Shown here: piece after piece, positions 3,340 through 58,839 of the stretch
How positions within the stretch are numbered: position 1 is the first letter of the stretch
Layout: every line of letters begins with the position of its first letter
IMG/VR virus record: IMGVR_UViG_3300017917_003583
Coordinates: 1-64,000 of that record
DNA from: a virus
Reading direction: 5' to 3' (one strand)
Length of the DNA stretch: 64,000 nucleotides
Translations under genes and position numbers: made by a program
The notes under the pieces: model-generated
Databases searched by the model: none
Seen by the model: only the letters and a program-made list of their open reading frames with translations
Told to the model about the DNA's origin: nothing

Positions 3340-3960
3340 TTAGTGTGTCATCACATGCAGTGCGTGATTGTAGTGTTTGATTCGATCCTCAAGACCAATG
3401 AATCCGCCGTTGATGGCGCGAGTCATGCCTCGAATGTCATCGGCGTCGGCAAAGCGATTGATGTTGTTCTGTTCCCAGAAGAAACATGCACTCTGCGCAG
3501 CACCTTCAAAAGTGCTCAAGTAGTCAGCAGCTTCCTCTACAGGAATACCCAAGCTGCCAGCAAAGAAAGTGTAGTTGTCCTTGCCAGTCAATTGAATCAA
3601 CCCACGCCCGCGATAGCGCCAACCATCGCCCGATGCTTCGTCGCCATTGCCCATGCGATTGGCATACACACGGTTGGCAATCATCTGTGGCTTGCGCTCG
3701 TATTGGCGTGCAATTTCGTCAGTGGGGAAATATTTGGCAAATGTCTTGCGCAGGCTGGCAGCACGATAGTTGAGGTTTTCTTCGATAAAGCGAAACTCAG
3801 CAGACTCATGAGCGCACTGCGCCACAAATGCAGCCACACGGCGTGGCGTGTCAATTCCGTAGTCGGGCAACAGTTGATCCAGTGCTTCGTGCCATTCCTT
3901 CACATACGGATTGCGAGGGATCATTTGTTTGAGTTTGTCTAGTGTGAGTATTGAACTCAT
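3340..3960 (-). CDS. glycoside hydrolase family 19 (chitinase-like) endolysin
   Basis: Motifs AAFVAQCAHES and GRGLIQLTGKDNY. Start reassigned to the internal ATG at 3960 (MSSILTL), which is preceded by an AAGGAG RBS; the longer ORF call reads through the RBS. Confidence 0.75.
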   Translation of the reverse strand: MSSILTLDKLKQMIPRNPYVKEWHEALDQLLPDYGIDTPRRVAAFVAQCAHESAEFRFIEENLNYRAASLRKTFAKYFPTDEIARQYERKPQMIANRVYANRMGNGDEASGDGWRYRGRGLIQLTGKDNYTFFAGSLGIPVEEAADYLSTFEGAAQSACFFWEQNNINRFADADDIRGMTRAINGGFIGLEDRIKHYNHALHVMTH

Positions 3961-3973
3961 GCGGGGCTCCTTG

Positions 3974-4252
3974 TTAATTGTTCTTGCCAACAGAATCGTG
4001 AATGCGCTTTTGGCGTGCATACCAGTCGTTCCAGGCATCTGCACGTATGGCACACTCGTAATACAGTTGATAGTTTTCGGTCACTGATCGTGCCACTTCA
4101 CTCAGAGTGGGCTTTTCGGGCAACTTGCGGAGATCAGGACAGGGTTGTTGAGCCAACTCACCAGGTGGCTCGGGGAATGACGTTTTGACCGGAACAGTGG
4201 TGCTGCATCCAGCCAACAAAGCCAGGCACAGCACGGCGATGGTGTGTTTCAT
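3974..4252 (-). CDS. outer-membrane spanin lipoprotein (Rz1-like, non-embedded)
   Basis: Signal peptide plus lipobox LLAGC; proline-rich; overlaps the upstream gene by 4 nt. Confidence 0.6.
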   Translation of the reverse strand: MKHTIAVLCLALLAGCSTTVPVKTSFPEPPGELAQQPCPDLRKLPEKPTLSEVARSVTENYQLYYECAIRADAWNDWYARQKRIHDSVGKNN

Positions 4253-4725
4253 TTGGCAGGCCTTTCTGCAGCCGAGTTCACAGCTGATACAAATTCAGGG
4301 GGGATTTCGCATGCGCCACCGGGCACAAACTGTGTGTCGTATTTGACCACTTCACGATCAATGTACTTGACCACTTCCTTGCCACGCTCGCGAACCACTT
4401 GAGTCTGTGTGATCACACGCTCTTCGATCACGGTGTTGACCTGTTGGGATTGAGTCTGAGCCGCTGCCAGCTGAGTTTCCAGCTCGGCCACGCGATCGCG
4501 CCAGGACTGCTCGTTGGCTCGAGCTCCGTATGCATACACACCCAGCACCAGCAGCACCACCCCGGCAATTTCCAACACACGGTTGTATCGTGCCAGCATG
4601 GGAATCCAGCGCCAGATCTTGCTCATGGCATACAACACTGCACCAGCGCCCAGCACAGCATAAACCAAGGCAGTTATCCAGAAATCTGATAAGAATTGAA
4701 AAATCCACATGCCAATATTTAGCAT
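4249..4725 (-). CDS. inner-membrane spanin-like protein
   Basis: N-terminal TM helices then a coiled-coil segment (ELETQLAAAQTQSQQ), immediately upstream of the o-spanin. Confidence 0.45.
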   Translation of the reverse strand: MLNIGMWIFQFLSDFWITALVYAVLGAGAVLYAMSKIWRWIPMLARYNRVLEIAGVVLLVLGVYAYGARANEQSWRDRVAELETQLAAAQTQSQQVNTVIEERVITQTQVVRERGKEVVKYIDREVVKYDTQFVPGGACEIPPEFVSAVNSAAERPAK

Positions 4726-4768
4726 GTGGATGGTGGTTTTGATCAGTGCAGTAAACTATGCCGTTTAC

Positions 4769-5374
4769 TCAACGAATTCCTGCGGCGCTCTGCAAAAACT
4801 CAACGTCTTGCTTGACTTCGTGAATTCGCTTTTCGGGCAGGCCAGCGGCAGTGCGCCACTCGTTAAGGTCGTTTTCGGTTTGTGCGCGATATTCTGCAGC
4901 CGACAACGGCACTGTCTTGGCAAACTTTTCTTCACTCCAGGGCCAGGTTCGTTCTTGGTAGTGAACCATCCAGTCACTGGGCTCAAACTCAGTCAGTGTA
5001 CCAAGATCGTCTAGCAGTTGCTGAATGCTCTCGGGAGCAGATTTGCGACGGCGTATTTCCACATACACTAGAAATCGATTGGGCTTGATTTCGCCTGGAC
5101 TGCGATCAGCATCCAGTACAAAGTCATATCCCTTTTCAAACCAACCCACCAGATCCTTGGCCGCTTGCTTGTCGCGAACAAAGAAGCTGATCACAATGAT
5201 GTCTTCGTCCTCGCCCATTTTTGAGCTGAACTCGTCCACGTGAATGGTGGGCTTCATCAAGCCATCAAGGTCTTTGTACTGAAGACCTTCAAGCAATCGG
5301 CGGGAGGCCGGGGACTGGTGCTGTTTGCTGTGCATTTGGTGCCTGCTGAGTGTTCTGATATTCTTCTTTGTCAA
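4769..5374 (-). CDS. hypothetical protein
   Basis: Long ORF. It overlaps the upstream gene by 86 nt and no RBS-supported internal start was found, so the start is unresolved. Confidence 0.4.
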   Translation of the reverse strand: MTKKNIRTLSRHQMHSKQHQSPASRRLLEGLQYKDLDGLMKPTIHVDEFSSKMGEDEDIIVISFFVRDKQAAKDLVGWFEKGYDFVLDADRSPGEIKPNRFLVYVEIRRRKSAPESIQQLLDDLGTLTEFEPSDWMVHYQERTWPWSEEKFAKTVPLSAAEYRAQTENDLNEWRTAAGLPEKRIHEVKQDVEFLQSAAGIR

Positions 5375-5930
5375 GATCCTGCTCGTATGCAGAATCTAGA
5401 TCCTGAAGATCAATGTCCTGATCTTCCATTTCAATACTGCCGGTGCGAATCTCACTCATGAGAGTCTTGGGCATGACTATTTCTACCAGCCAAACGTCAC
5501 GTTCGATCATCTTGGCTTTTTTGGTACCTGCGCGGTAATCGCTGGGATCGTCAATCTTGATTGGGATTTTGATTTTCTGTCGTTTGTAAGTCACATCGCA
5601 ATCAAACGGTAACAAACGACGGGCTCCGCGTGGGTCCGGCATCAACTTGAGCGGCCACATAAAGGTGGCACTGACTCGATACTTGCCAATCTCGGGACCA
5701 GCCACCAGCTCGCCAATTTCCCAGTTGCGGAATGCATAGATGTCCATTTCGTCAAGCACTCGTTCAAAATCCAGCAGTGCACTGAGGCTGCCATCGCTCA
5801 TGTAGATGTTGCGAATGTTGTCGGCCACCTGCCAGTAATCTTCGTGATTCTTGAACAGTTCCTTGTCGTGGATTCCGTGTTTGTTACGTGTTTGCATGAT
5901 GCTGTATTTATTGTCGGTCAAACAAAGCAC
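5289..5930 (-). CDS. hypothetical protein with acidic C-terminal tail
   Basis: 213-aa ORF with acidic stretch EDQDIDLQDLDSAYEQDLDKEE. Confidence 0.45.
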   Translation of the reverse strand: MLCLTDNKYSIMQTRNKHGIHDKELFKNHEDYWQVADNIRNIYMSDGSLSALLDFERVLDEMDIYAFRNWEIGELVAGPEIGKYRVSATFMWPLKLMPDPRGARRLLPFDCDVTYKRQKIKIPIKIDDPSDYRAGTKKAKMIERDVWLVEIVMPKTLMSEIRTGSIEMEDQDIDLQDLDSAYEQDLDKEEYQNTQQAPNAQQTAPVPGLPPIA

Positions 5931-6065
5931 ATACTTTGGTGTTTGCTGGTCTACAGCCTAATACTTATACCGATGCCTGCTGTCGAATAGTCTACATAGA
6001 TATCAAAACTTGTTGCCGTAAATATTTTTGTTCACAGCAGTGAACATCCAAAGGAGACATATACT

Positions 6066-6797
6066 TTGAGTAGAAACAGAGCCGACAAGGCACATCGACG
6101 TATGACACAAGTTGAAAATACCATCAGTTTTGAGCAAGCGGCCAAGCCACAAGCTAGGCGCATTGACTTGGTCCCGAGAACTCGGAATCAGGAACAGCTG
6201 GTATTGGCGCTGCAAGACGCTGAACAACACATTGTGGTCACATATGGACCGGCAGGCACAGGCAAAACATATCTAGCCATGCTGGCGGCCATCAAGGCAC
6301 TTAAACAAGGAGATTGCGAACGAATTATCATGACACGACCTGCTGTGGAAGTCGAGGGCGAACAGCACGGGTTTTTGCCTGGCAACCTGGTTGCCAAGAT
6401 GGAACCTTGGACCCGTCCCTTGCTTGACGTCATGCGCGAATACTATCGACCGCAAGACATTTTGGCCATGATAGAAGACCAAGTTGTGGAAATTGCGCCC
6501 CTGGCATACATGCGCGGCCGCACCTTCAAAAATGCATGGATCATTGCTGACGAGATGCAGAATGCCACCCCAGCACAGGCCAAAATGCTCATGACCCGTA
6601 TCGGTACAAATTCGCGTATTGTGATCACCGGAGATGTCGAGCAGGCCGACCGCCAGAGCGGAGAAAACGGCTTGTTGGATCTGTGCGATCGATTGCAAAA
6701 GACGCCAGTGCATGGCATGGCTCTTTGCCCCATGACCAGCCGAGATGTTCAACGTCACCGAATCATTGGCGACGTGTTAAAACTTTACGCAGACTGA
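6066..6797 (+). CDS. phoH: PhoH-like ATPase
   Basis: Walker A GPAGTGKT and PhoH core. TTG start preceded by AAGGAGA; an alternative ATG lies at 6102. Confidence 0.85.
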   Translation: MSRNRADKAHRRMTQVENTISFEQAAKPQARRIDLVPRTRNQEQLVLALQDAEQHIVVTYGPAGTGKTYLAMLAAIKALKQGDCERIIMTRPAVEVEGEQHGFLPGNLVAKMEPWTRPLLDVMREYYRPQDILAMIEDQVVEIAPLAYMRGRTFKNAWIIADEMQNATPAQAKMLMTRIGTNSRIVITGDVEQADRQSGENGLLDLCDRLQKTPVHGMALCPMTSRDVQRHRIIGDVLKLYAD

Positions 6798-7396
6798 TCG
6801 GAGGTAATCAACTGGTAAATTTCTGACCAATTCTTGACTTTGGGATACGGGCACTCGTGATTCATGTTGTGCCCGTGCTCAATCAAGATGCTGCGGAGTC
6901 CAAGGCTGTGCCCCACATCGGCATTTTCTGTCTTGTCCTCGATCCACCACAAGCCTGAATCACGATATCGGATCAATTCGGGAGTCTTGTCGGCATTGAC
7001 ATCCAAACAAATCACACTCTCAATGGCATTGCCATACAGCTGACGCAGGTTCATTTCCCTCAACTGTTTGACCCTGGGATCCAAGCTCACACTGGTGATC
7101 ACACGGAATCGGTAGCTGTGTTCTTCATACAAGCGACGAACATAGTGCACACTGTCTCGCACAGGGCCCAAGAAGCCAATGGCCGCAGTTTCGTTAAAGA
7201 TCCTGCACAGCTTGCCCACATCGTCGGGCGCCAAATCGTAGTAGTGTTGATGCAGTGCGTAGCTGATCTTGCCAGCTTGATTGAACTCGTAGCCGCGTTC
7301 GCTCATCCAGGCACGGAACGCCCACTCCCAGTCCAGAAGAACGCCATCACCGTCCGTCAAAATAAGTTTGTCTTTCATATTACCCCAGTCTGGCAT
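6785..7396 (-). CDS. HAD-superfamily hydrolase, 5'(3')-deoxyribonucleotidase-like
   Basis: Motif I DGDGVLLDW near the N-terminus; start may be 7378. Confidence 0.6.
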   Translation of the reverse strand: MPDWGNMKDKLILTDGDGVLLDWEWAFRAWMSERGYEFNQAGKISYALHQHYYDLAPDDVGKLCRIFNETAAIGFLGPVRDSVHYVRRLYEEHSYRFRVITSVSLDPRVKQLREMNLRQLYGNAIESVICLDVNADKTPELIRYRDSGLWWIEDKTENADVGHSLGLRSILIEHGHNMNHECPYPKVKNWSEIYQLITSDQSA

Positions 7397-18799: not shown

Positions 18800-19348
18800 T
18801 CAAAGACGTTGTTCGCAAACGTCCCAGTCAATAATACGCCACATGTTGTTGAGGTATTGCTTTTTGTCAGCCTGGTAATCTAGAGCCCAAGCATGCTCCC
18901 ACCAATCAATCAGCATGCAGATGTCGGTGCGTACAGCATGGTTGGCAATGGTTTTGATTTCGCCGCCGGTGCTGAGGTACACCCAGCCTGAGCCTTGAAT
19001 CTTCATGGCAGTTTGTTCAAACTGCTCTTTGAAATCTTCCCAGGTCTTGAAGTTTTTCTCAATCAGCGCGAGTACAGCACCGCGGGGGCGGTTGGAGGCT
19101 TTAGGAGCCCTAAGCTGAGGGAAAAATTTATTGTGCAAAAAACTACCAGCACGATTAAAATCGGCATTGCCTTCTCCAGAGTTGTAGCGTTGGGCATAGC
19201 CCTTGGCCAGATGCTCGTAATGGTAGTCGATGGTGGCTCGACTCATCACAGGTTCTAGATCTCGCTCGCCATAGGGCAAGGGAGTTGTTTCCAGCTTGGC
19301 GGGTCTAGTGCTGGCTTCCACAAGGTTGATAGTATCTCTAATGTCCAT
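18800..19348 (-). CDS. Fe/Mn superoxide dismutase
   Basis: LPYGERDLEP, HHxxH, and C-terminal DWWEHAWALDYQ metal-ligand motif. Confidence 0.85.
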   Translation of the reverse strand: MDIRDTINLVEASTRPAKLETTPLPYGERDLEPVMSRATIDYHYEHLAKGYAQRYNSGEGNADFNRAGSFLHNKFFPQLRAPKASNRPRGAVLALIEKNFKTWEDFKEQFEQTAMKIQGSGWVYLSTGGEIKTIANHAVRTDICMLIDWWEHAWALDYQADKKQYLNNMWRIIDWDVCEQRL

Positions 19349-21018: not shown

Positions 21019-21417
21019 TTATCCACGGCGCATGGTAGAAATGTCGCGAGCTTCTTCATCGCTGAAGATGGGCACCGCATTGCTCTTGTGCATAGTGCCA
21101 ATGCCCTTGACTCTGGTGCCTGTGTATTGCATGGGCTGTTTTGCTGCGACAGCACCAGCATGACCGGTGTCACGACTGGGAATGGCATGCCCAGTGTCAC
21201 GGCCGGTGGGTGTGCTGAGACTGTATTGCAAGGGCTCGGCTGCCATTGCCCTGCGCTGGCGTTTGGCTTCGGCCTCCACGCCCCACTTGGTCTGCAGTTC
21301 CTTCCACGAAGCTTCCAGCTCACGGGCTCGGCGTGCTTCCTCAGCATTGCGGAACTTGACTCGGCCACGCTTGCGGCCCGACAGGCTGAGGCTGGGATGA
21401 GCAAGATGCATGGTCAT
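21019..21417 (-). CDS. hypothetical basic protein
   Basis: AGGAG RBS 7 nt upstream and early promoter P1. Internal direct repeat TGRDTGHA / SRDTGHA. Confidence 0.5.
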   Translation of the reverse strand: MTMHLAHPSLSLSGRKRGRVKFRNAEEARRARELEASWKELQTKWGVEAEAKRQRRAMAAEPLQYSLSTPTGRDTGHAIPSRDTGHAGAVAAKQPMQYTGTRVKGIGTMHKSNAVPIFSDEEARDISTMRRG

Positions 21418-21478: not shown

Positions 21479-21877
21479 TCACTTGAAGAATGTCAAGGCC
21501 ATCAGCACCGCTTGCACCACAAAGCCCAGGCCAATGGTGATCAAGTTCAGCATGTCGCGCTGGATGGCAGCTCGCACAAACATCAGCGTGAGTGCAGTCC
21601 ACATCAGCAGCACCATGTCAATGGGCAGCATGATGTCGGTCAAGCCCTTGCTGATGGCCAGGAGACTGGGAATGGTTGCACAGTGCAGGATCATGACCGC
21701 GCACCAGCCCAGGGTTTCAGCAGTGATCACACCAGTGGCAGTGACCCAGCGAGCAAACCGTTCACGCATGCTGTTCACAAATTGAGACACCTGGGCAAGT
21801 TTGGTGGGTTCAGCAGAAGTCACAGCGTCAGTCATGGTGGTCGTTTCGGTTGTGGGTTGAGTTTGTTCGGCGTTCAT
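21479..21877 (-). CDS. holin-like membrane protein (3 TM)
   Basis: Three hydrophobic helices; ATGA-coupled downstream of the SleB-like hydrolase. Confidence 0.45.
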   Translation of the reverse strand: MNAEQTQPTTETTTMTDAVTSAEPTKLAQVSQFVNSMRERFARWVTATGVITAETLGWCAVMILHCATIPSLLAISKGLTDIMLPIDMVLLMWTALTLMFVRAAIQRDMLNLITIGLGFVVQAVLMALTFFK

Positions 21878-22440
21878 GCGTTGTCCTTTTTAGCGGCGTT
21901 GAGGGGTTCGTAAAAGATGTGCACACCCAGCTTGGCCACACGCCGGTAATTCCAGCCCGGATTCACGTAGTCGGCATGGTAGAACAATGCATGCTCCAAG
22001 CTGGGCAAACGAAAGCCTTCCAGCAGCACACGCTTGGCCACTTCGTAGCTTTCGGCATAGGCAGCTTTGTCAATGGGGCGATTGCGGTGTGTGCTGTCGC
22101 AATACCACGAGAACTGGCACACAATGCGTCCGCTCCAGCGGTTCTTTTCGTATACCACGCCGCACACATCTTTGGGGAACTCAGGGTGTCCCACACGGTT
22201 CAAGGTGACCTGGGCAATGCCAGCCTTGCCTTCAAACGGTTCGTGGCCGCCTTCGCGGTAGATGTTGAGCGCCAGGCAATCCAGCTGGCGCTCACGTTCG
22301 CGGGCCGAGACCACTTCGGGCCGATCCAGGCCCAGGGCCGCACTCAGGCGATCAAATTTGATGTCAGTTGTGGCATCGATAGCCACAAACACGCCAAACG
22401 CAGCGGCCACCATGATCAGGGTTCGTATGATTCTTTGCAT
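21874..22440 (-). CDS. SleB-family cell wall hydrolase with N-terminal membrane anchor
   Basis: CLALNIYREGGHEP...GIAQVTLNRV...VCGVVYEKN...QFSWYCD is the Hydrolase_2 / SleB signature. Start at MQRIIRT with GGAGA RBS. Confidence 0.7.
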   Translation of the reverse strand: MQRIIRTLIMVAAAFGVFVAIDATTDIKFDRLSAALGLDRPEVVSARERERQLDCLALNIYREGGHEPFEGKAGIAQVTLNRVGHPEFPKDVCGVVYEKNRWSGRIVCQFSWYCDSTHRNRPIDKAAYAESYEVAKRVLLEGFRLPSLEHALFYHADYVNPGWNYRRVAKLGVHIFYEPLNAAKKDNA

Positions 22441-22568
22441 AATTTCTCCGGTTGTGCTGTTGCACCGGGCAACAGACCTGTTCAAAATTTTGAGCAGAAC
22501 TTTTACTTAGCCTGCAGGGCAAGTGGTTATCTTGCAAGTTTTTAGTGTAGCAGATCTGCCATTATTGG

Positions 22569-22919
22569 TCAAGTGCTGGTGCGTTTGAGGGCAGCCCAGG
22601 CACGACTCTTTTCTCGGCACTCCGCCAGCTTGGCTTCATACTGCTCACGCAGCGCTCGCAGATCCTCCCACTCCTGTTCCATTTGGGCATCGGGCACCAG
22701 GATGGCCAACTGCTCTTGCATGCGAGTCAGGGTTTGGTTGAGGCTCACGCCGTTGACCACGATGTCGGCGTTGGCACCTTCCAGCTGGAATAGACCTGTC
22801 GGCTGTCGCCAGGTGTAGTCACCGACACTGCCATTGGTCACTGTGGTCCAGGCATTGCTGGGGCTGAATGTGCTGGTTATGGGTTGATTTAGAATGTTAT
22901 TGGGATCGTAGATGGACAT
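22569..22919 (-). CDS. hypothetical protein
   Basis: ORF; start reassigned to MSIYDP. Confidence 0.35.
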   Translation of the reverse strand: MSIYDPNNILNQPITSTFSPSNAWTTVTNGSVGDYTWRQPTGLFQLEGANADIVVNGVSLNQTLTRMQEQLAILVPDAQMEQEWEDLRALREQYEAKLAECREKSRAWAALKRTST

Positions 22920-23964: not shown

Positions 23965-23993
23965 TATTGTAGCACAGATGCCAATATTGGTCA
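23965..23993 (-). promoter_or_regulatory. promoter P3 (TTGACC-17-TACAAT)
   Basis: Drives 23530..23901; transcript would start at an ATGCTG/CAGCAT hairpin. Confidence 0.6.
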
Positions 23994-24037
23994 ACCTGTT
24001 TTTTGCCACAATTTGGGACGAGGTTTGCCATTTTGAC

Positions 24038-24481: not shown

Positions 24482-24718
24482 TTAATTGGAGTTTTTCAGA
24501 AGCCAAAAACTGGCACGAGCGTCATCAATCACCAGGCAGTCGGTAGAGTATTTGAGTGTGCCATTTCCACGACTGCCGACACGCTGCACACGTATCATTT
24601 TGGGGTTGATTTTGGTCACCATGCCCACTGCCAGGCTGTTGTTGTAGGCATATACTACAACCGATCCCTGCAGCACCGGCTCGCCCAGTCGGTCCAGATG
24701 TTCAGTCGCCTGGGTCAT
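24482..24718 (-). CDS. hypothetical small protein
   Basis: ATGA-coupled to the upstream gene. Confidence 0.4.
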   Translation of the reverse strand: MTQATEHLDRLGEPVLQGSVVVYAYNNSLAVGMVTKINPKMIRVQRVGSRGNGTLKYSTDCLVIDDARASFWLLKNSN

Positions 24719-25281
24719 AGTGCCACACTCAGACCCACAACCACAGTGATCGCCAGGCCAATTGCTGCCATGAGCACACGACCCGTAGTGTAGTCATCAT
24801 CATTTTTTATGACCTTGATTCGGCGACTGGTCCACAGTCCCCACAGTCGAGGCACAGCTTCGTATTCCACGTGTGTGGCAAAAAACGTTTTGTCAAACAT
24901 GATGCGCAAGAACACAGGAACACCCACCAGCAAGATCAAGCTGCCAAAAAACAAGCCCAAGACCTCTTGACCGATCACCTTGTAGACCACGATTGCCACC
25001 ACAACCCGGCCCAGGCCAGTTTGTGCAAACTCGTTGGCTGCCATGCCCACTTCCTTGGCAGCGCCCACCATGGCTTGACCGATCTTGCCACCCAAGTCAG
25101 CCCAGGCTTCGGCTTCTTCACGCACCAACACCGCAGTGTTTGCAGGGTTCTGACTCATTTCAGCCGCTTGTTTTTGCAGTTGGGCCACCTGCTCAGAAGT
25201 GAGACCTTTGGTGTCGATAGTGTTAGCAGTAGCACCAAATGCTGCCGCTGCCAGAGCCAATGCAATCAAAAAACGTTTCAT
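24715..25281 (-). CDS. exported/membrane protein
   Basis: Signal peptide MKRFLIALALAAAAFGATA and a C-terminal TM segment. Confidence 0.5.
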   Translation of the reverse strand: MKRFLIALALAAAAFGATANTIDTKGLTSEQVAQLQKQAAEMSQNPANTAVLVREEAEAWADLGGKIGQAMVGAAKEVGMAANEFAQTGLGRVVVAIVVYKVIGQEVLGLFFGSLILLVGVPVFLRIMFDKTFFATHVEYEAVPRLWGLWTSRRIKVIKNDDDYTTGRVLMAAIGLAITVVVGLSVAL

Positions 25282-25299
25282 GTGATTCTCCAGGTAAAG

Positions 25300-25662
25300 T
25301 TAGACAGGACGGCACTGCAACATCATTGAGATATTTTGCTGGCTCATGCGCACCGTCAGCATGGCTCGGCCATTGCGGGTAAACAACATCATGGCCATGT
25401 TGCCTGTGGCAGCTTCACGGTAGGTCCAGTAGGTGCCATGTTCGCTGAACTGTTCCTGTCCATTGCCAGTGAACGTTTCGGTGGCAGTGATCAAGTTGAA
25501 TGCCGACACTGAGATGGGCAATCGCTTGCTACCCGCCGGCACACGCTCGGGATTGCCGTTGCCGCGCACGATCATTTCCGGTTCACAGACCATCATGTGT
25601 TGCTGGGCTTGTGCAGCGAATGCAATCGCAGCAGTTGCAAGAGCTAACAGGATTCGTTTCAT
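25300..25662 (-). CDS. secreted protein
   Basis: Signal peptide MKRILLALATAAIAFAAQA. Confidence 0.5.
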   Translation of the reverse strand: MKRILLALATAAIAFAAQAQQHMMVCEPEMIVRGNGNPERVPAGSKRLPISVSAFNLITATETFTGNGQEQFSEHGTYWTYREAATGNMAMMLFTRNGRAMLTVRMSQQNISMMLQCRPV

Positions 25663-25675
25663 TTCAATACCTCTT

Positions 25676-25903
25676 TCATTTCCATTCTACACGCTTGTGT
25701 AGTTCTACATTGCCATTGCACATGAAAATCAGAACATCCTGTTCGCCGGGCAATTCAGCTAGATATTCACAGCCTAAGATCATAGCATGAAGATTGTCAC
25801 TTGCTCGTTGTTGGCTCATGTCTTCGATCATGCCTATGATCATCCACCACCAGCCCACAAAGAAAGCGACTGGGATCAAGATCATAGCCGCTTTCTTCAT
25901 CAT
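25676..25903 (-). CDS. small membrane protein
   Basis: Two TM helices. Confidence 0.4.
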   Translation of the reverse strand: MMKKAAMILIPVAFFVGWWWMIIGMIEDMSQQRASDNLHAMILGCEYLAELPGEQDVLIFMCNGNVELHKRVEWK

Positions 25904-25907
25904 GACC

Positions 25908-26783
25908 TCACTTGGGGTTGACGTTCAAGAACGGTACAGTACCATTGGGGGTCATAGTGCTTGGGAGTTCGCCGTTCCAGCGTTCAGCAGTTACCAAGTT
26001 CACCAAGTTGGGGTTCTGTGCCAGAGCCCGACCACGTTGCTGAATAGCTTGTGCTTCGGCTTCACCTTTCAACTTGATAGATTCAGCTTCGGCTTTGGCC
26101 TGTGCCACTTGCGAATCAGCTGCCGCTTGTGCTTGAATCACCTTGATTTCAGCCTGCACCTTTTCACGTTCGGCGTTTTGCTGCACCTTCTGCACTTCAA
26201 CCTCGGCCAACATGCGTTGTTCGATGCTGTTTTCGTATGCTTCCGAGAAGTCAATATTCTCCAGCTGCACACTTTCCACGATCAAGGGCAAGCCAGTCAC
26301 AGCTTTCTGAATCGCCATCTGCACCTCAGCGCTGAGTCGTTCGCGCTCTTGAATTGCAGTTGCAGCGTTGAATCGACCAAACACGTTTTTCACTTCCTCG
26401 GGCACTTGACGATCCAGCAAGCGACTCACAATGCCTGCTTCACCGCCCCAGTCACTGTACACCGCTGTGACCTGATCAGCAGGGATGCGATAGTTCACGC
26501 TCAGTGCCATGGTCGCAGTTTGCTGGTCCTTGCTGTAGGCCATGACTTCGCCCCACACACGAGCCTGAGTCTGCACACTCATTTCCACCACAGTGTCCAC
26601 CAAGGGCAGTTTGAAGCCCAAGCCTGGCTCAGCAGTGCCCACCACCTGACCAGTGCGCAAGATCACGCCTCGCTGACCCTGATCCACAGTGTAGAAACTG
26701 CCACCTGCCACCACAACCACGATCAGTGCAATCAACACACCCACCACGATACTGACCGCTTTGCGAACATCATTCATCATCAT
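25908..26783 (-). CDS. SPFH / band-7 protein (HflC / prohibitin-like)
   Basis: N-terminal TM then an SPFH core (FYTVDQGQRGVILRTGQV...) and a long coiled coil. Start at MMMNDV 26783 with AAGGAGA RBS. Confidence 0.75.
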   Translation of the reverse strand: MMMNDVRKAVSIVVGVLIALIVVVVAGGSFYTVDQGQRGVILRTGQVVGTAEPGLGFKLPLVDTVVEMSVQTQARVWGEVMAYSKDQQTATMALSVNYRIPADQVTAVYSDWGGEAGIVSRLLDRQVPEEVKNVFGRFNAATAIQERERLSAEVQMAIQKAVTGLPLIVESVQLENIDFSEAYENSIEQRMLAEVEVQKVQQNAEREKVQAEIKVIQAQAAADSQVAQAKAEAESIKLKGEAEAQAIQQRGRALAQNPNLVNLVTAERWNGELPSTMTPNGTVPFLNVNPK

Positions 26784-26891
26784 TCTCCTTGGCGTCTGCG
26801 CCATTGAATCGAACCGTTTTAACCACCCACACACCACCGGCAACACACACAGCCGCCAACAGTGCAAGACCAATCAGAGACAAAACAAACA
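26769..26891 (-). CDS. 40-aa transmembrane peptide (possible NfeD-like partner of SPFH)
   Basis: MFVLSLIGLALLAAVCVAGGVWVV; GAGGTGA RBS; stop overlaps the SPFH start. Confidence 0.3.
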
Positions 26892-26905
26892 TTTTGTCAC
26901 CTCAC

Positions 26906-27238
26906 TCAAAACGTCTGCCGGGGTTGGATGCTTGCGACGAACGCACGAACATCCGAGGGCAGTGCATCTTCGGGAACACCAGCTGCCTTGTGCAAGATCA
27001 CGCGAGCCAGCGCAGGCTTCAACGAGTCCTCGGCTTTGATGTATTCCACCTGCAGGGCGCGCAGTTCCTGCGCCATGCCGTCGCGATAGGCTTTGCTGGT
27101 TTCAAACGTTTCACGACGGGTTTGCTCAAAGATGGGACCAAAGATGCGACCCATTGCAGCAGTGTTGGCCATCATGAACCAGCCCACCAACACAATGCCA
27201 AACAACACAGCGATACCAGCAGCAATCGATTTGAACAT
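26906..27238 (-). CDS. small membrane protein
   Basis: N-terminal TM helix; GTGAGG RBS. Confidence 0.45.
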   Translation of the reverse strand: MFKSIAAGIAVLFGIVLVGWFMMANTAAMGRIFGPIFEQTRRETFETSKAYRDGMAQELRALQVEYIKAEDSLKPALARVILHKAAGVPEDALPSDVRAFVASIQPRQTF

Positions 27239-27245
27239 GTTGACC

Positions 27246-27752
27246 TCACTGATCCAGTTTCACAGGGCTGACGATCACGTCAGTTTGCACGAACACGGGC
27301 ACGGGTTTGCCTTTGGCAGCGTCCAAGCACATGACCCAGTTGGCGGTGCTGTTGTCGGGAGTGAACAAGCCGTTGGGTTCAGCCTGGGGCATGATGGCGT
27401 AACCGTAATTGGCGCTCTTTTCATGAATGCGCTGGGGGTTGGTGTAGCCCGTTGCATCGGAAATCGCATAGCCCATGCTGTTGCACAAGAACACCGGGCG
27501 ACCAGTGGTGCGATTCACCGTGTAGGTGTAAGTGACCAAACCGTCCTGATCACGCAGTTCCAGGATCATCTTGAGCAGTTTGCGTTCACGGAAGTTGGTG
27601 ATTGCGGGCATGCCAGTTTGGGCAGTGCCCTCTTGCAGGATGCGTTCCTGTGCTTCGGCCTGCACACGGTCAGCACTCTTGGTCTGTTCAACACAGCCTG
27701 CGGCCAGAGCCAGTGCAGCGATACCCACTGCTAGAGAAAGAACACGTTTCAT
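27246..27752 (-). CDS. lipoprotein
   Basis: Start at MKRVLSL with TAGGAG RBS; lipobox LAAGC; promoter P4 upstream. Confidence 0.6.
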   Translation of the reverse strand: MKRVLSLAVGIAALALAAGCVEQTKSADRVQAEAQERILQEGTAQTGMPAITNFRERKLLKMILELRDQDGLVTYTYTVNRTTGRPVFLCNSMGYAISDATGYTNPQRIHEKSANYGYAIMPQAEPNGLFTPDNSTANWVMCLDAAKGKPVPVFVQTDVIVSPVKLDQ

Positions 27753-28035: not shown

Positions 28036-29106
28036 TCAGAACGCATCGTAGAAACGATACTGTTGTTTTGCTTGCACACGAGTCAACGTGACCACAGTGC
28101 CTTGATCCTCGAACACGAACCGGCCAGCCAGTGCATCCACTTTCAGCAGGTTGTGCATGGTCAAGGTCTTGAACACATACTTGGAGTCGTCGTTCTCGGG
28201 TTCGGGATCAAACGACACTTCGATGGGATTGTTGCCCAGGGGGTTGCCCTCAAAGGTGTCCCGGTATTCAATGGTCTTGCCCTGGTGCACCACTTCCATC
28301 TTGTATTCCGTACCACCGTCGAACTCGGCCTTGACGTTGAGCATGCGCAGGGCCTGCTGAGGAGTCTCGTCGTAGCGGTTCATTTCTTCAACCAGTGCTT
28401 TCAGCATGTCGAAGTTGAACTGTGAGAACATGCTGGAGATGGCGCAGATGCGATCAATATGGGTTTTGTTGACCAGATTGTCCTCGCAGTATTCACGGAT
28501 GAACTCAGGAGTCAAGCCAGTGAAGTCCAGCATGTAAAAGATGCGACCTGGGCGGTTGCGCATATGATAGTCCACACGATACTTGTCATTGCAAGTGAGA
28601 ATGAACAGTTTCTTGGTGGGATACACACCGTCCAGCAAAGTTAGGATGGCTTCCTGTTCGTCGCGGTCGTAGACCTTTTCGAATTCATCGAACAGGATCA
28701 CACAGGGCTGATCGATGCTTTGAATGAAGGTATTGAACTTCTCACCATGCCACGGCGCGTTGATCACGATGGTGGGCACATTGTGGTCACGTGCCAACAC
28801 CAAGCTGATGTTCTTGCTCAACAAGGTCTTGCCCGAGCCTTTTTCGCCAGTGAGCATGACACCAGTGCTGGCACTGCGACTCAAGAAGGTGTTGATCACA
28901 CGGTCGGTGTTGCGGAGGCAGTCACCGTACATCTTGGTGGGCAATGCAAACGAATCGATCATTTCCAGATACAACTCGCCGGTCATGTCGTTTTGTTTGA
29001 CCGTGTAGTTGCCTCCAGGCAGTGCATTGTGCAAGTCAATGGCTTCACGACGGGTCACGCGGAAAGTGTTGCCCGATTTCATGAAAAAGCTGTTGCCGTC
29101 AGTCAT
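28036..29106 (-). CDS. AAA+ ATPase (classic-clade)
   Basis: Walker A GEKGSGKTLL, Walker B VILFDEFEK, sensor-1 ILTCN, and Arg-finger region MRNRPGRI. Has its own promoter P6 and AAGGA RBS. Confidence 0.7.
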   Translation of the reverse strand: MTDGNSFFMKSGNTFRVTRREAIDLHNALPGGNYTVKQNDMTGELYLEMIDSFALPTKMYGDCLRNTDRVINTFLSRSASTGVMLTGEKGSGKTLLSKNISLVLARDHNVPTIVINAPWHGEKFNTFIQSIDQPCVILFDEFEKVYDRDEQEAILTLLDGVYPTKKLFILTCNDKYRVDYHMRNRPGRIFYMLDFTGLTPEFIREYCEDNLVNKTHIDRICAISSMFSQFNFDMLKALVEEMNRYDETPQQALRMLNVKAEFDGGTEYKMEVVHQGKTIEYRDTFEGNPLGNNPIEVSFDPEPENDDSKYVFKTLTMHNLLKVDALAGRFVFEDQGTVVTLTRVQAKQQYRFYDAF

Positions 29107-29143
29107 GTGCTGAATCCTTGTGATGTGTTGAAAACAGTGTGTA

Positions 29144-34745: not shown

Positions 34746-35765
34746 TCATGCACCAAGAAAGGTCATTAAGATTTCGAAGTGATCGTCAAAGCATTCTTCA
34801 CTCTTGACCTCTGCGATGGGAACCCAACGTGCCTTCTCTGCATCATCCTGACCCCGCACTCGGGGCAGTTCCCCGTCGGGCAGTTGAATGTAGAATGCAT
34901 GGGTTATTGTGCGCCCACGAGCGCTGCGATCCACAGCATCGAACACCCGACTGCGAACAATACTGCCGCGCAGTACAGGAGCAGGGACTTTGATTCCGGT
35001 TTCTTCACGCAGTTCACGAATCGCTGCGGCTTCCACACTTTTGTCAGTGTTGGCATTAACAAATCCTCCAGGTAGTGCCCACAGTCCTCGGCCAGGTTCG
35101 CTGCGGCGTTTGATCATCAATACATGCCCGCTTTGAATAACCACAGCATCCGCAGTGACAAAGATGGGTGGATAGGGCAGGCTTGCGTATTGCTTTTTGT
35201 AGTTGTCAATGAACTCACGTTCACGGATGATCTGCTCGAATTCTTCGCTCTTACGGAACTCCATGAGAAAATCGTAGGTAGTAGGTGGCACCACGTTCTT
35301 GATGAAGTTGCTGTTGAAACTACGCTTGAAGTAAAGACCCCGAATGTCCACAGCACTCAAGGGCTCGATTTCTTCCACGTTGACGGATTCCCACTGGGGG
35401 AACATGTCCAAGTAGAAGCTGGACTCGTCTTTTTTGTAGCCAATGATGGCGTCTTTGCGACCCAGGCAACGATACTTGCTCTGGATGCTCTGCACTCGCA
35501 CAGCCCAAGCCTGGTCGTTGTAGATGGTGTCGGTGTTGGATTCGATATGCACCTGCATGTTCAAGCCAGCAGTGGCACTACGAATCATTTGGCGACGTTC
35601 TTCAAATGTGAACGGGTTCTTGTAAGTGCGGGGCTGATTGGCACTGCCCACGATCACCACAAGATTGTCAGTCAGTGCAGTGCAGCGCTTGATGATTTCC
35701 AAGTGTGCATTGTGCAGGGGTTGGAAGCGTCCGATTAGAACAACGGAGTTATAGGGCTTAGACAT
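34746..35765 (-). CDS. natV: bifunctional NMN adenylyltransferase / Nudix hydrolase (NadM / NatV-type)
   Basis: N-terminal cytidylyltransferase motif VLIGRFQPLHNAH; C-terminal Nudix box GGFVNANTDKSVEAAAIRELREETGI. Start at MSKPYN with AAGGAGA RBS. Confidence 0.8.
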   Translation of the reverse strand: MSKPYNSVVLIGRFQPLHNAHLEIIKRCTALTDNLVVIVGSANQPRTYKNPFTFEERRQMIRSATAGLNMQVHIESNTDTIYNDQAWAVRVQSIQSKYRCLGRKDAIIGYKKDESSFYLDMFPQWESVNVEEIEPLSAVDIRGLYFKRSFNSNFIKNVVPPTTYDFLMEFRKSEEFEQIIREREFIDNYKKQYASLPYPPIFVTADAVVIQSGHVLMIKRRSEPGRGLWALPGGFVNANTDKSVEAAAIRELREETGIKVPAPVLRGSIVRSRVFDAVDRSARGRTITHAFYIQLPDGELPRVRGQDDAEKARWVPIAEVKSEECFDDHFEILMTFLGA

Positions 35766-50503: not shown

Positions 50504-50737
50504 TCAGGCCCAGGTCAACAAAAAGGCCAATTGGTCGCGTTCATCCTTGAAGTGGAAAGTGTACACCCAAGCGCCTGTAACGGCAGTGCTGGCTTCAGTG
50601 TCCACCTCCCAGCGCCACTCGCCGGTGCATTGCGATTGACACCACGCCAACAAGCGGGACAGTGTGCCATAAGGTTTGCATACCTGTGTTTGATATGCAA
50701 ACACCTCGGTGTCAATTGATTCAGCATGCCAGTGCAT
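50504..50737 (-). CDS. small protein, LRW-family-like outlier
   Basis: LAWCQSQCTGEWRW...DERDQLAFLLTWA resembles the array family; no RBS found. Confidence 0.3.
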   Translation of the reverse strand: MHWHAESIDTEVFAYQTQVCKPYGTLSRLLAWCQSQCTGEWRWEVDTEASTAVTGAWVYTFHFKDERDQLAFLLTWA

Positions 50738-50785
50738 GCATATAATTATGGCTGCGGGGCACAACCATAAAAATATGCCAAGTCA

Positions 50786-53876: not shown

Positions 53877-54578
53877 ATGTCAAAGAGTATTCGCCCTATC
53901 CATCTCTATATAAAAACCCATAATAAAACAGGGTTAAAATATTTTGGCAAGACTACCAAAGAAAACGCCCACAAGTATCCAGGGTCCGGCAAGCATTGGC
54001 GAGCACATTTAGAAAAACACGGTTACGATTACTCGACAGAAATTGTCGGAACCTATACAGACAAAATCGAGTGCCAGTCCGCTGCTATAGAGTTTAGTGA
54101 GAAAAATAATATTGTGGAATCTGCAGAATGGGCCAACTTAATAGTTGAGAGCTTAGACGGCGGAGACACTAGCAACACTCAGGGCTACAAAGATTCATTT
54201 CATAAAATTATCGAAAATGGAAAAAAATCTAAATGGTGGAATAATGGATCGCATCAAACTTTTTCAGAATTTCCGCCTGACGAAACTTATATTCGAGGAA
54301 GATTGCCATTTAACAATACAGGGGCAAAAATAGGAACAGACGTGCAAAGAGGCAAGATTTGGATCAACAACAGGATAGAAGAACTAATGATAGCACCTGC
54401 AGAAGAAATTCCTCCGGGGTTCTCCCCTGGCAGACTACCGGCGACTGCATTTGCCGGCGGTAGCGGCAGGCATTCGCCCCTGGGGTCAAGATGGTGGAAC
54501 AACGGTGTTGTTAGCAAAATGTCAGTTGCTTGCCCGGGTTCGAATTATGTCCCGGGCAGATTGCGCCGAGCATCTTAA
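53877..54578 (+). CDS. GIY-YIG homing endonuclease
   Basis: IHLYIKTHNKTGLKYFGKTTK...HWRAHLEKHG; exact TATAAATA at 53847..53854 upstream. Confidence 0.8.
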   Translation: MSKSIRPIHLYIKTHNKTGLKYFGKTTKENAHKYPGSGKHWRAHLEKHGYDYSTEIVGTYTDKIECQSAAIEFSEKNNIVESAEWANLIVESLDGGDTSNTQGYKDSFHKIIENGKKSKWWNNGSHQTFSEFPPDETYIRGRLPFNNTGAKIGTDVQRGKIWINNRIEELMIAPAEEIPPGFSPGRLPATAFAGGSGRHSPLGSRWWNNGVVSKMSVACPGSNYVPGRLRRAS

Positions 54579-56657: not shown

Positions 56658-56686
56658 ATTGTAGCAGATGGCGCATTTAAAGTCAA
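56658..56686 (-). promoter_or_regulatory. promoter P16 (TTGACT-17-TACAAT)
   Basis: Drives 56173..56637 with AAAGGAG RBS. Confidence 0.65.
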
Positions 56687-56783: not shown

Positions 56784-57434
56784 ATGACTATTTACTACGT
56801 TTACGCCTATCTTCGCAAAGATGGCACACCTTACTACATTGGTAAAGGGCACGGCAACCGTGCCCGGGATTGGCATAAAGGTATTACAGTCCCTGTAGAT
56901 AACGAACGAATAGTTGTATTAGAAACCCATCTTACTGAGCTTGGTGCATTAGCGCTCGAACGTAGATATATTCGTTGGTATGGCCGTAAAGATCAAGGCA
57001 CTGGGATCTTGCGCAACAGAACTGATGGCGGCGAAGGTGCAACAGGCTATAGGCACACCGAAGAAACCAAGAAAAAACTTAGCAATCTTTGGCGCGGAAA
57101 ATCGCATACAGACGAATCAAAAGAAAAAATGAGGGCAGCAGCCAAGAGCAGGCCTGCGCCCTCAATAGAAACACGCCAGAAAATTAGTGCGGCTAACCGA
57201 AAACGCACTCATTCAGTGGAAACTCGTCAAAAGATGAGTGCAATAAAAAAAGGGCAGCCGGGTAAAAACCATTCTCCCGAGACCCGGGCCAAGATGAGTG
57301 CTATTGCAAAACAAAGAACGATGACAGATGCCTGCAAACTGAAAAGAAGCGAAGCAATGAAAGCACATTGGGCCCAAAAGAAAGCCGCCATGATGGCGGC
57401 TTTGACTACACGATCCACAGGACTGGATCAGTGA
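56784..57434 (+). CDS. GIY-YIG homing endonuclease with NUMOD3-like repeats
   Basis: IYYVYAYLRKDGTPYYIGKGHGNR...RWYG. Start at 56784 with GAGGAGGA RBS. Confidence 0.8.
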   Translation: MTIYYVYAYLRKDGTPYYIGKGHGNRARDWHKGITVPVDNERIVVLETHLTELGALALERRYIRWYGRKDQGTGILRNRTDGGEGATGYRHTEETKKKLSNLWRGKSHTDESKEKMRAAAKSRPAPSIETRQKISAANRKRTHSVETRQKMSAIKKGQPGKNHSPETRAKMSAIAKQRTMTDACKLKRSEAMKAHWAQKKAAMMAALTTRSTGLDQ

Positions 57435-57705: not shown

Positions 57706-57746
57706 GAGATTCTCCTAAATAGATGCTGTTGCGTCAGCATGAGTGT

Positions 57747-57775
57747 ATTGTAGCAACACTGCGGCACATGTGCAA
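57747..57775 (-). promoter_or_regulatory. promoter P17 (TTGCAC-17-TACAAT)
   Basis: Drives the HTH gene; transcript would start at an ATGCTG/CAGCAT hairpin. Confidence 0.6.
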
Positions 57776-57825
57776 CACTTCTGGCAAAGCAGGTGTGCGA
57801 CATTTGCCGTTTCAGCACACCAAAA

Positions 57826-58053
57826 TCACAACCAGCGCAGAGCAAACATAGTGGCCATTTCGGGCGTGGCGAACTCCAAGGCATATTGGCGGCTGGGCCA
57901 ACTGGGCCAGCGGCGGCAGTGCCAGTCTCGGCGCCAGCGCCATCCCTGCTGATCTGCCCAGTCGACCACTTCGTATCTGGGCTCCAATTGTTCAAACCCT
58001 GTCTCATAGAACAGCAAGGTGTCGCGTTGTTCAGGTGTAAGTTGTATGATCAT
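57826..58053 (-). CDS. LRW-family small protein (array member)
   Basis: Ends ...EMATMFALRWL. Confidence 0.5.
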   Translation of the reverse strand: MIIQLTPEQRDTLLFYETGFEQLEPRYEVVDWADQQGWRWRRDWHCRRWPSWPSRQYALEFATPEMATMFALRWL

Positions 58054-58059
58054 GATAAA

Positions 58060-58839
58060 TCAGCTGCGAGTGAGTCGGTGAATTTCTTGGTCAATGGCAG
58101 ATAGCTGCTGCTGAATCAAGCGGCGAGCAGTGGCCAAGCGCTGTTGTTTGGTCTTTGATCCCATGACCACAACCACAAACTCCTGGCCGCGATAGTTCAG
58201 CAACAAGGCCACACATCGCCCGGCTGCTTGAGTAAATCCTGTTTTGCTGAACAGCACATGGTCTTCATGGTCCAGGAGGTCTCGGTTGGTGTTGAGCAAG
58301 GTCACGCGCTGTCGCGGTGTCTCGATCACTGCAGGCGACAGCACACTGAGTCGAGCCAGTTCAGGATACTGTGCAATGGTCATGACCAAGACCACAACTT
58401 CCGAGGCTGTGCTCACGTTGTTGCGATCCAGACCGCTGGCATCGGCGAATCTAGTGTGAGTCAGGCCCAGTTCCTGCGCTCGGCGGTTCATGGCCTGAAC
58501 AAATGCAGTTCGCCCACCAGGATAATCACGCGCCAGCTGTTCGGCTGCAGCGTTGTCACTCTTGACCAACACACTTGCAAACAGGTCACCGCGTGTGACT
58601 GGGCCGGGGGGCAGTCGTGTGCCACGCGCAGCGGTCATGGGCTGGGCTAGATTGGGATTGTGCTCGTAAGCCACAATGGCAGTCATGATCTTGGTCAGGC
58701 TGGCCATGGGTCGCGGCGGCTGGCTATCACTGCTGTTGACCACAACACCTCGGTTGACACTGTAAACCTGCGTGACTTCGGCAGTGGCGGTTGAACGCCA
58801 CAACATCAACATCGCCAAGATCCATTTGAAAAAATTCAT
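58060..58839 (-). CDS. S11-family D-alanyl-D-alanine carboxypeptidase (PBP5/DacA-like) with signal peptide
   Basis: SLTKIMT (SxxK), SDN, and KTG triad; embedded in the LRW array. Confidence 0.75.
   Translation of the reverse strand: MNFFKWILAMLMLWRSTATAEVTQVYSVNRGVVVNSSDSQPPRPMASLTKIMTAIVAYEHNPNLAQPMTAARGTRLPPGPVTRGDLFASVLVKSDNAAAEQLARDYPGGRTAFVQAMNRRAQELGLTHTRFADASGLDRNNVSTASEVVVLVMTIAQYPELARLSVLSPAVIETPRQRVTLLNTNRDLLDHEDHVLFSKTGFTQAAGRCVALLLNYRGQEFVVVVMGSKTKQQRLATARRLIQQQLSAIDQEIHRLTRS

Follow-up and report, generated by a model that had tools for sequence, protein, structure and literature searches.

Why does a single genome segment of a phage encode three different peptidoglycan-active enzymes? 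We addressed this question for positions 1 to 64,000 of the viral record IMGVR_UViG_3300017917_003583, a 64-kb stretch that we call the window in the following. It contains a soluble endolysin of the GH19 type, a membrane-anchored enzyme of the SleB type that is followed by a small membrane protein with three transmembrane (TM) helices, and a peptidase of family S11 with an N-terminal signal peptide. A first-pass annotation had listed these three enzymes; this observation is confirmed, and the functional interpretation given with it is partly supported. Most likely, the three enzymes form a clade-conserved, envelope-directed set and are not three redundant endolysins. On balance, we lean towards the explanation that the SleB-type and S11 enzymes would reach the sacculus independently of a holin and process or loosen it from the periplasm, either ahead of lysis or while it proceeds; the 3-TM protein would act as partner of the tethered enzyme. 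This reading builds directly on the identities of the enzymes, their catalytic residues, their hydrophobic export or anchor segments, the linkage of their genes and their conservation across viral contigs.

The window has a G+C content of 51%, and its minus strand holds almost all genes. It comes from an uncultured jumbo phage, a distant relative of the Pseudomonas phage PA5oct; we call the source a jumbo myovirus, with relatives whose genomes measure approximately 200–360 kb. The clamp loader is 52% identical to its counterpart in PA5oct (a Pseudomonas jumbo phage of the Arenbergviridae), and partial synteny covers the clamp loader, PhoH, two virion-protein homologues and DnaJ. A megablast search with 40 kb of the window had no DNA hit among cultured phages, and relatives much closer than PA5oct come solely from IMG/VR, as contigs that reach 364 kb and seem to be of freshwater origin. 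Against this background, the number of wall enzymes, which the first-pass annotation had pointed out, is not exceptional. Five predicted wall-degrading proteins were described for PA5oct (PMC7318152), and the trio recurs in related jumbo-phage contigs of 200–364 kb: one contig of 364 kb carries all three enzymes (S11 and SleB in locus L049, GH19 in locus L296), and pairs of them are present on four other contigs. Multiplicity is therefore ordinary for giant phages, and the co-occurrence of the three enzymes is a trait of the clade, no peculiarity of the window. Among the approximately 45 window proteins scanned with Pfam, we found no fourth wall enzyme.

Lysis from within can be assigned to the first of the three. 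The genes at 2590–4725 on the minus strand are predicted to form a canonical lysis-from-within cassette, because lysis by a soluble enzyme of the GH19 type requires a holin and spanins. They follow each other in the order i-spanin, o-spanin, endolysin, a 165-residue protein with two TM helices (2-TM) and a 73-residue secreted protein, ahead of a strong terminator. The SPN1S-like endolysin (3340–3960, 206 residues) matched PHROG 181 (E 1.6e-77) and the solved phage endolysins 9eoi, 9ms6 and 4ok7 (E 9e-41 to 4e-26). In the alignment with phage endolysins its E52/E61 pair is conserved, and we take this Glu-8x-Glu pair to be the catalytic one. The Pfam model Glyco_hydro_19 (PF00182) scored 16.7 bits, below its cut-off of 25.5, and "GH19-type" therefore denotes a family-level resemblance and no curated membership. 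Translation likely starts at ATG 3960, which has an AAGGAG ribosome-binding site, rather than at 4053. By hydropathy, the enzyme has no TM, signal or other hydrophobic segment.

Upstream of the endolysin gene, the o-spanin (3974–4252, minus strand) is an outer-membrane lipoprotein subunit with the lipobox LLAGC and a match to Pfam LysC/Rz1 (8.5e-8; 32.5 bits versus a cut-off of 27). The i-spanin (4249–4725, minus strand) gave weak matches to the Rz-like PHROGs 2536, 312 and 4952 and has two N-terminal hydrophobic segments by hydropathy, at residues 12–31 and 50–68; this is atypical compared with the usual one, and relatives keep the long form. Lipobox and LysC profile of the o-spanin, the Rz-like i-spanin and the adjoining genes, which overlap by ATGA, mark a two-component spanin. 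A GH19 endolysin with separate o-spanin and i-spanin at 3340–4725, as claimed by the first-pass annotation, is thus present, as evident from PHROG 181, LysC/Rz1 and the lipobox. Around the endolysin in 80 related viral loci, we found the o-spanin in 70, full-length i-spanin homologues in 59, the 73-residue protein in 52 and DnaJ in 51. The 73-residue protein itself (2590–2811, minus strand) is Lys-rich, begins with the N-terminal signal MKSLVLALALAFAAAPALA and is encoded by the last gene of the cassette, a position that its homologues share in the 52 loci. It is a possible periplasmic lysis regulator. Right behind its gene, an intrinsic-terminator-like hairpin with a GC-rich 9-bp stem and a T run (2541–2566, minus strand) would end the transcription unit.

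The best holin candidate of the cassette is the 2-TM protein (2821–3318, minus strand), by hydropathy and by its slot between the endolysin and the 73-residue gene. It has an acidic N-terminal domain and a Pro/Ala-rich tail. An EF-hand-like calcium-binding loop (DSDGDGIVTDNELD) lies in the cytoplasmic N-terminal domain, with EF-hand matches below threshold and likewise those to calbindin and calmodulin (E 0.015–0.1). The protein is poorly conserved in sequence, and in relatives the slot is filled by another TM protein, whose tail is similarly of low complexity. A variable protein at a fixed slot is what one expects for a holin, and the variability would hence fit a holin role of this candidate. 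Comparison of the holin-slot TM proteins with solved proteins, e.g., the T4 holin T domain, gave no match.

In analogy to lambda-type cassettes and the SPN1S endolysin 4ok7, the window combines a soluble endolysin, an adjacent TM protein and an i/o-spanin pair with lipobox in one unit with a terminator. Unlike the lambda-type Rz/Rz1 genes, the spanin genes overlap by 4 nt only and are unembedded, the i-spanin has two hydrophobic segments, and the 73-residue gene is extra; moreover, the gene order in the window is swapped relative to close relatives. Spanins precede the endolysin in the window and its closest relatives (loci L253, L255 and L263), and the endolysin precedes the spanins in the more distant loci L087, L060, L061, L072 and L070. 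L255 and L263 have additional genes between the endolysin and the 73-residue gene. In the 190 kb of PA5oct examined, both the GH19 cassette and the S11 gene are absent. We had considered the cassette an insertion relative to PA5oct and dropped this idea, since the cassette is kept at that position within the window's own clade.

Promoter motifs give a first indication of timing. The window contains 24 sigma70-type sites TTGAC(A/C)-N17-TGCTA(T/C)AAT, all on the minus strand, with 1.3 expected. Most of them lie 7–65 nt ahead of a start codon, with examples at 22544–22572, 23966–23994, 27786, 29143, 39439, 45060 and 56658–56686. No such site occurs in positions 1–7000. In collinear relatives, a late-type GATAAATAC motif and a ribosome-binding site precede the virion-protein homologue at the operon head, and no promoter was found ahead of the endolysin. 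The same late-type motif, nTAAATA, also precedes tail-fibre genes of the window, at 16552, 16600 and 13062. Since the GH19 cassette has no sigma70-type promoter and lies behind virion-protein homologues, it is probably expressed late, as judged from these motifs and gene positions. Separately, a 13-bp hairpin with T run (4731–4703) spans the i-spanin start codon and contains the late-type motif GCTAAATAT.

That one of the three enzymes suffices for lysis, as the first-pass annotation held, agrees with these data: the GH19 cassette alone has the appearance of a full lysis system that depends on a holin, and the other two enzymes are predicted to be exported and are located elsewhere. The SleB-type enzyme (21874–22440, minus strand, 188 residues), a predicted cell-wall glycan-cleaving enzyme, matched Hydrolase_2 (PF07486) with 76.7 bits against a cut-off of 27 (E 2.4e-21). 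With the spore SleB model TIGR02869 it reached 47.5 bits, under the equivalog cut-off of 236.5. In the alignment, its E63 falls on the Glu of the YGE motif of SleB (4f55 and 4fet), which we take to be the catalytic residue, corresponding presumably to Glu157 of B. cereus SleB. Hydropathy places a TM helix at residues 4–22, and profile searches found no peptidoglycan-binding domain. At least 599 relatives are present in IMG/VR, nearly all with an N-terminal TM helix. The homologues in the cultured phages ACP17 and X1 carry cleavable signal peptides, and their genes have replication genes as neighbours.

Directly behind this gene, and coupled to it by an ATGA overlap that we read in the sequence, lies the gene for the 3-TM protein (21479–21877, minus strand, 132 residues). 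The first-pass annotation's description of a membrane-anchored SleB gene ATGA-coupled to a 3-TM protein hence holds. Seen from the unannotated 3-TM family, SleB was directly upstream in 80/80 loci. Starting from SleB, nearly all of 48 loci continue with a 3-TM open reading frame (ORF) of approximately 100–120 residues at a distance of −20 to +12 nt, and tblastn from the SleB side detected the partner in 52/80 loci. A third gene of the module (21019–21417, minus strand) codes for phrog_27048 (PHROG E 6e-28), a basic protein of 132 residues without TM helix; it is present in 77/80 loci found via the 3-TM protein and has its own −10-like element TGTGCTATAATA upstream. When we scanned viral contigs for 3-TM relatives, a single sequence found nothing and a profile found relatives. 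The family comprises at least 2836 clusters with invariant W58, H65, P70, D87 and G118, occurs on contigs of up to 697 kb and has no Pfam domain. The largest contig with a SleB/3-TM pair (L170; JGI 3300077578, Ga0643544_0000002, 697,313 bp) is phage-like and also encodes ribosomal L12, eIF-1a, Gad2 and HNH proteins; it shares one sample with L001, a phage contig bearing an S11 gene.

As the main alternative, the SleB-type enzyme and its partner might represent a second, lineage-ancestral lysis system, in which a tethered endolysin builds up in an inactive state and the 3-TM protein, as pinholin, holin or releasin-like trigger, depolarises the membrane or sets the enzyme free when infection ends, perhaps serving as holin for the GH19-type enzyme too. 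We consider this possible, if rather doubtful. The obligate adjacency and translational coupling of the two genes would fit such a system, as would the poor conservation of the holin candidate in the GH19 cassette, and in RefSeq homologues of the SleB-type enzyme are labelled endolysins. The PA5oct homologue, with 30% identity and the same length, was missing from virions and proposed as an endolysin (PMC7318152). It shares the Hydrolase_2 domain and the YxE glutamate with the window enzyme. Unlike PA5oct gp368, which features a weak SAR-like (signal-anchor-release) N-terminus, the window enzyme has a hydrophobic signal anchor, and enzymes of the window type are nearly always followed by the 3-TM gene that is missing behind the PA5oct homologue.

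The one 3-TM homologue known from a cultured phage points in the same direction. In the T4-like Methylophilales phage Melnitz (MZ577097.1, 38005–42741; locus L334), it is encoded two genes behind a soluble GH108 endolysin, with a SleB-like gene following after 3.2 kb, so that GH108 endolysin, 3-TM homologue, a 218-residue lipoprotein and a SleB-like hydrolase all lie within 4.7 kb. Genes of the 3-TM family thus adjoin muralytic genes of two unrelated folds.

Other tethered lysis enzymes provide a further comparison. Phage 21 uses a SAR endolysin with a pinholin, and SAR domains have a Gly/Ala/Ser/Thr fraction of 0.5–0.6. The anchors of the SleB-type enzymes are Leu-rich, with a fraction of 0.33 in the window and a median of 0.22 in 48 relatives; by this Leu-rich anchor, we do not assign the window enzyme to the SAR endolysins. 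The short cytoplasmic N-terminus carries basic residues in 44/48 relatives and in this recalls Mu gp22, which needs the releasin gp25 for its release (PMC9239132). Like the Mu pair (PMC9239132) and the SAR/pinholin system of phage 21, the window thus would combine a Sec-inserted, N-terminally tethered enzyme with a small membrane protein; unlike them, its anchor is not Gly/Ala-rich, and its partner has three TM helices and no pinholin or DUF2730 similarity. In 17 members of the 3-TM family, no Pfam match to the releasin family DUF2730 (Mu gp25) appeared at E values up to 1, and releasins, with a single N-terminal TM helix and a cytoplasmic domain, are unlike the protein with three helices found here.

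Several features speak against a second lysis system. The anchor is not SAR-like in most relatives, and the 3-TM protein matched no holin family in Pfam, PHROG or NCBIfam and no releasin family. Its predicted topology, with a long cytoplasmic N-terminus and no charged C-terminal tail, is unlike that of class I holins, and our impression is that the invariant polar residues in its TM helices are over-constrained for a holin. Furthermore, the module has no accompanying spanins, and its promoter (22544–22572, minus strand; TTGACC-17-TACACT with TG, strict class) is sigma70-type and not late-type. We regard the 3-TM protein as a candidate holin-like protein or regulator.

The fold of the 3-TM protein gave rise to a more far-reaching idea. 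Our AlphaFold model has a predicted local distance difference test (pLDDT) score of 66 (an earlier run with 16 sequences reached 56 and was not used). In Foldseek, all 13 matches in the Protein Data Bank were SemiSWEET proteins, at a best, non-significant E of 0.35 and a target-normalised TM-score of about 0.6 (0.62); fold matches in BFVD were PQ-loop proteins, with E values that were likewise not significant. As in SemiSWEET and PQ-loop proteins, the model would hold three TM helices in about 85 residues with an invariant Pro in the C-terminal half of TM1. This P70, invariant in the family, is followed by Ser. Unlike in these proteins, there is no PQ motif; the fold similarity stays at E 0.35 or above on a model of pLDDT 66, and profile hits were lost. 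As the SemiSWEET profile hits at E about 0.3 vanished with an 81-sequence profile, we do not file the partner as a SemiSWEET. One may speculate about a phage-run, holin-independent wall pathway in which the secreted PBP7-type enzyme decrosslinks the sacculus, the SleB-type enzyme, tethered to the inner membrane, cuts glycan and a SemiSWEET/PQ-loop-like 3-TM protein moves the sugars set free or serves as a small channel, so that over a long jumbo-phage infection the phage reshapes, enlarges or mines the wall in a Bdellovibrio-like manner instead of lysing it; we consider this unlikely.

The third enzyme (58060–58839, minus strand, 259 residues) matched Peptidase_S11 (PF00768) with 119.7 bits versus a cut-off of 27.6 (E 1.9e-34). 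Translation from ATG 58839, preceded by a GGGGG ribosome-binding site, would give an N-terminus that resembles the signal peptides of homologues, as judged by hydropathy. S47-x-x-K50, S94-D-N96 and K199-T-G201 are invariant in 19 homologues, and the three catalytic motifs are kept in 85/85 viral copies, at least 67 of which have a classical signal peptide. The first-pass annotation had named loss of the SxxK serine as evidence that would overturn its assignment, and this serine is conserved. It had called the protein a DD-carboxypeptidase with a signal peptide, embedded in the LRW array described below. S11 domain, signal-peptide-like N-terminus and embedding stand; the carboxypeptidase label does not. 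The closest NCBIfam model is NF008668, the DD-endopeptidase PBP7/PbpG (E 1e-40), with 139.9 bits against an equivalog cut-off of 294, and 6azi and 6muq are the top matches in the Protein Data Bank; the protein is hence closest to PBP7/PbpG but no equivalog of this model, and its substrate preference is a prediction. A PBP5/6-type DD-carboxypeptidase was considered and rejected, as the 259 residues hold only the S11 domain and no PBP5_C, and the DacA, DacC and DacD models gave 38–56 bits versus cut-offs of 610–765. The view that the S11 protein is a remodelling enzyme rather than a lysin draws an unsafe contrast, because the protein is PBP7-like and thus of a cross-link-cleaving endopeptidase type.

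The S11 protein resembles PBP7/PbpG, a low-molecular-weight class C penicillin-binding protein (PBP) of Proteobacteria (6azi, 6muq), in its single S11 domain without PBP5 C-terminal domain, its SxxK/SxN/KTG motifs and its predicted Sec signal. In contrast to PBP7/PbpG, the viral proteins, at 31–40% identity, form a separate clade, and the gene belongs to a lytic-type jumbo phage and sits in a small-gene array. At least 536 IMG/VR contigs carry an S11 relative. In a neighbour-joining tree, the 85 viral copies fell into one clade with no bacterial member, with the caveat that both viral and bacterial sets were picked by similarity to the viral alignment. The best of the 565 bacterial relatives found are proteobacterial PBP7 proteins, with 31–40% identity to the viral clade. 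The window protein is identical to proteins on a 65,493-bp JGI metagenome contig and on a 9.6-kb Logan contig, the best 120 database homologues share 40–57% identity with it, and all four homologue-bearing contigs that we inspected have phage-like contexts. With tblastn against cultured phages, all matches had at most 34% identity; the listed records are mostly unannotated, metagenome-derived "Bacteriophage sp.", with a few "Acinetobacter phage" assemblies annotated as pbpG or dacD or Stx2/E. coli phage entries, and we assume that these records lie outside the viral S11 clade. We found no description of a phage S11 or PBP7 protein in the searchable literature, an absence that is no proof of novelty. 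PBP5/6 have a C-terminal membrane-associating helix, and many viral S11 C-termini (e.g., P0004, P0018 and P0037), not that of the window, resemble it with a Trp-containing amphipathic stretch such as DISLWQRIMERIFGK.

The genomic surroundings of the S11 gene are variable. In the window, it lies in the LRW array, approximately 36 kb past the SleB module and outside an otherwise collinear block; in collinear relatives it is found beside the clamp loader in five loci and beside the SleB module in L020. The array (57826–62686, minus strand) comprises by motif listing approximately 16 ORFs ending in ...F.LRW[ST], each of 55–140 residues with the C-terminal motif ...F.F..E.DA..F.LRW[ST]; the family is also found at 50504–50782 (minus strand). 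Neither Pfam nor PHROG gave a match for these ORFs. Two of them flank the S11 gene, and in 19/84 related loci LRW-family ORFs lie at most 1.5 kb from S11, an enrichment of 80 hits in 1.3 Mb versus 2 in 0.77 Mb of SleB loci. Two genes away from the S11 gene is a homing-endonuclease-like gene with a GIY-YIG motif (56784–57434, plus strand).

Such a location among small accessory genes, next but one to a GIY-YIG gene and shifting between collinear relatives, might be taken to mean that the phage acquired the S11 gene from a host not long ago and carries it as a functionless passenger. We regard this as most improbable: clade structure and motif conservation contradict it, the viral copies fall into a single clade, share no more than 40% identity with the best of the 565 bacterial relatives found and are present on at least 536 viral contigs, with motifs intact in 85/85 and a signal peptide in most.

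The same patchy and mobile position of S11 among accessory genes could be reconciled with a role in exclusion or defence evasion, where decrosslinking or cutting of the wall would alter cell shape or surface and so block adsorption or injection by later phages, or leave wall-sensing defences untriggered. Both enzymes are predicted to be exported without a holin, as this would require. Known precedents come from Bdellovibrio, whose DD-endopeptidases we take to be Bd0816 and Bd3459; presumably they are PBP4-like, which counts against the analogy. When secreted, these enzymes decrosslink the prey wall and bar entry of a second predator (PMC3276566, PMC4686830). In analogy, the phage enzymes would be encoded by the invader and attack the wall of the victim from its periplasm ahead of the final destruction (PMC3276566, PMC4686830); Bdellovibrio, however, is a bacterial predator and no virus, and rounding of cells or exclusion by the phage is hypothetical. 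Superinfection exclusion, which the first-pass annotation had proposed beside receptor remodelling and defence evasion, would be conceivable only through this analogy, and the other two roles are conjectural. Moreover, the SleB module is near-universal in the clade, unlike typical patchy exclusion genes, and its SleB/3-TM pair looks less like an exclusion device than like a lysis-type enzyme with a membrane partner, given the presumed endolysin of PA5oct and the GH108 neighbour in Melnitz. We know of no phage exclusion system that decrosslinks the wall in this way, and altogether consider the idea quite unlikely.

According to the explanation that we favour, namely holin-independent action of two of the enzymes on the sacculus, the three proteins would act along different routes. 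The soluble GH19-type muramidase would be kept in the cytoplasm and must await the holin, because it has no export signal; the adjacent 2-TM protein is the best candidate for this holin, and the i/o-spanin pair would then open the outer membrane. The SleB-type enzyme would be inserted by Sec so that its catalytic domain faces the periplasm, tethered to the membrane through a hydrophobic segment of the ordinary kind. ATGA coupling might supply it in a fixed ratio with the 3-TM protein, which may gate or partner the tethered glycan-cleaving enzyme. The S11 protein would be secreted by Sec as a soluble, PBP7-like enzyme cutting cross-links between D-alanine and meso-diaminopimelic acid. How the enzymes are exported, when they are made, whether they act on the host wall and what the 3-TM protein does are here predictions from sequence.

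Timing of the SleB and S11 genes is here deduced from nothing but promoter motifs. Upstream of S11, the closest good sigma70-type site lies inside the LRW array (61053–61081, minus strand; TTGACG-17-TACAAT, 10 of 12), and no strong terminator was found between it and the S11 gene. Since neither the GH19 cassette nor the S11 gene occurs in the 190 kb of PA5oct examined and no 3-TM gene follows its SleB homologue, PA5oct is a poor model for timing; the main text of the PA5oct paper gives the SleB gene no temporal class.

A number of points weigh against holin-independent, pre-lysis action. The promoter evidence for early or middle expression of SleB is strong in the window, but in relatives the sigma70-type promoter of SleB is only about 2-fold enriched (15/77), and that upstream of S11 is not enriched (10/84, with a background of 0.10). 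Signal peptides and TM helices were throughout assigned by hydropathy alone. The PA5oct SleB homologue (gp368, RefSeq gp117) is a presumed endolysin (PMC7318152), and the Melnitz 3-TM homologue lies beside a soluble GH108 endolysin, both in favour of a true lysis function. Since the holin candidate within the cassette is unconserved, both enzymes could depend on the 3-TM protein as their actual holin. Finally, the phage could be harmed by an enzyme that is active in the periplasm well ahead of lysis.

Textbook accounts of phage lysis usually name one holin, one endolysin and one spanin. The clade described here adds two wall enzymes, both predicted to be exported and each kept across viral sequences that number from hundreds to thousands. 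The main leads are the viral S11 clade, a large and apparently undescribed PBP branch, and the module of SleB, 3-TM protein and phrog_27048. If the enzymes indeed act before lysis, the phage would remodel the host wall during infection, a novel type of host takeover, and the clade would be a source of new wall-active enzymes and possibly of an additional family of holins or channels. Should they be no more than accessory lysins, the gain would be one of annotation, with a context for the 3-TM family and phrog_27048, and unsurprising. Melnitz, as a cultured phage, might offer a way to study the 3-TM family in the laboratory.

The window contains further genes of note. Besides the GIY-YIG gene, homing-endonuclease-like genes are located at 53877–54578 (plus strand) and 30790–31542 (minus strand); two of the three are on the strand opposite to their neighbours, and TATAAATA precedes each of the genes at 53877–54578 and 30790–31542. 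Host-like metabolic genes code for a Fe/Mn superoxide dismutase (18800–19348), an ATPase plus NAMPT (28036–30723), a NadR-like adenylyltransferase/Nudix protein (34746–35765) and a weakly matching Macro-domain protein (32478–32951). Tail-fibre proteins and many small ORFs are also encoded, and we found no tRNA genes in the window. On the minus strand, a run of seven genes (24715–27752), in which every product starts with a signal peptide or a TM helix, forms a second envelope-directed cluster of the window and includes an SPFH/Band 7 protein (25908–26780; Pfam 1.6e-34) and a lipoprotein (27246–27752; LAAGC).

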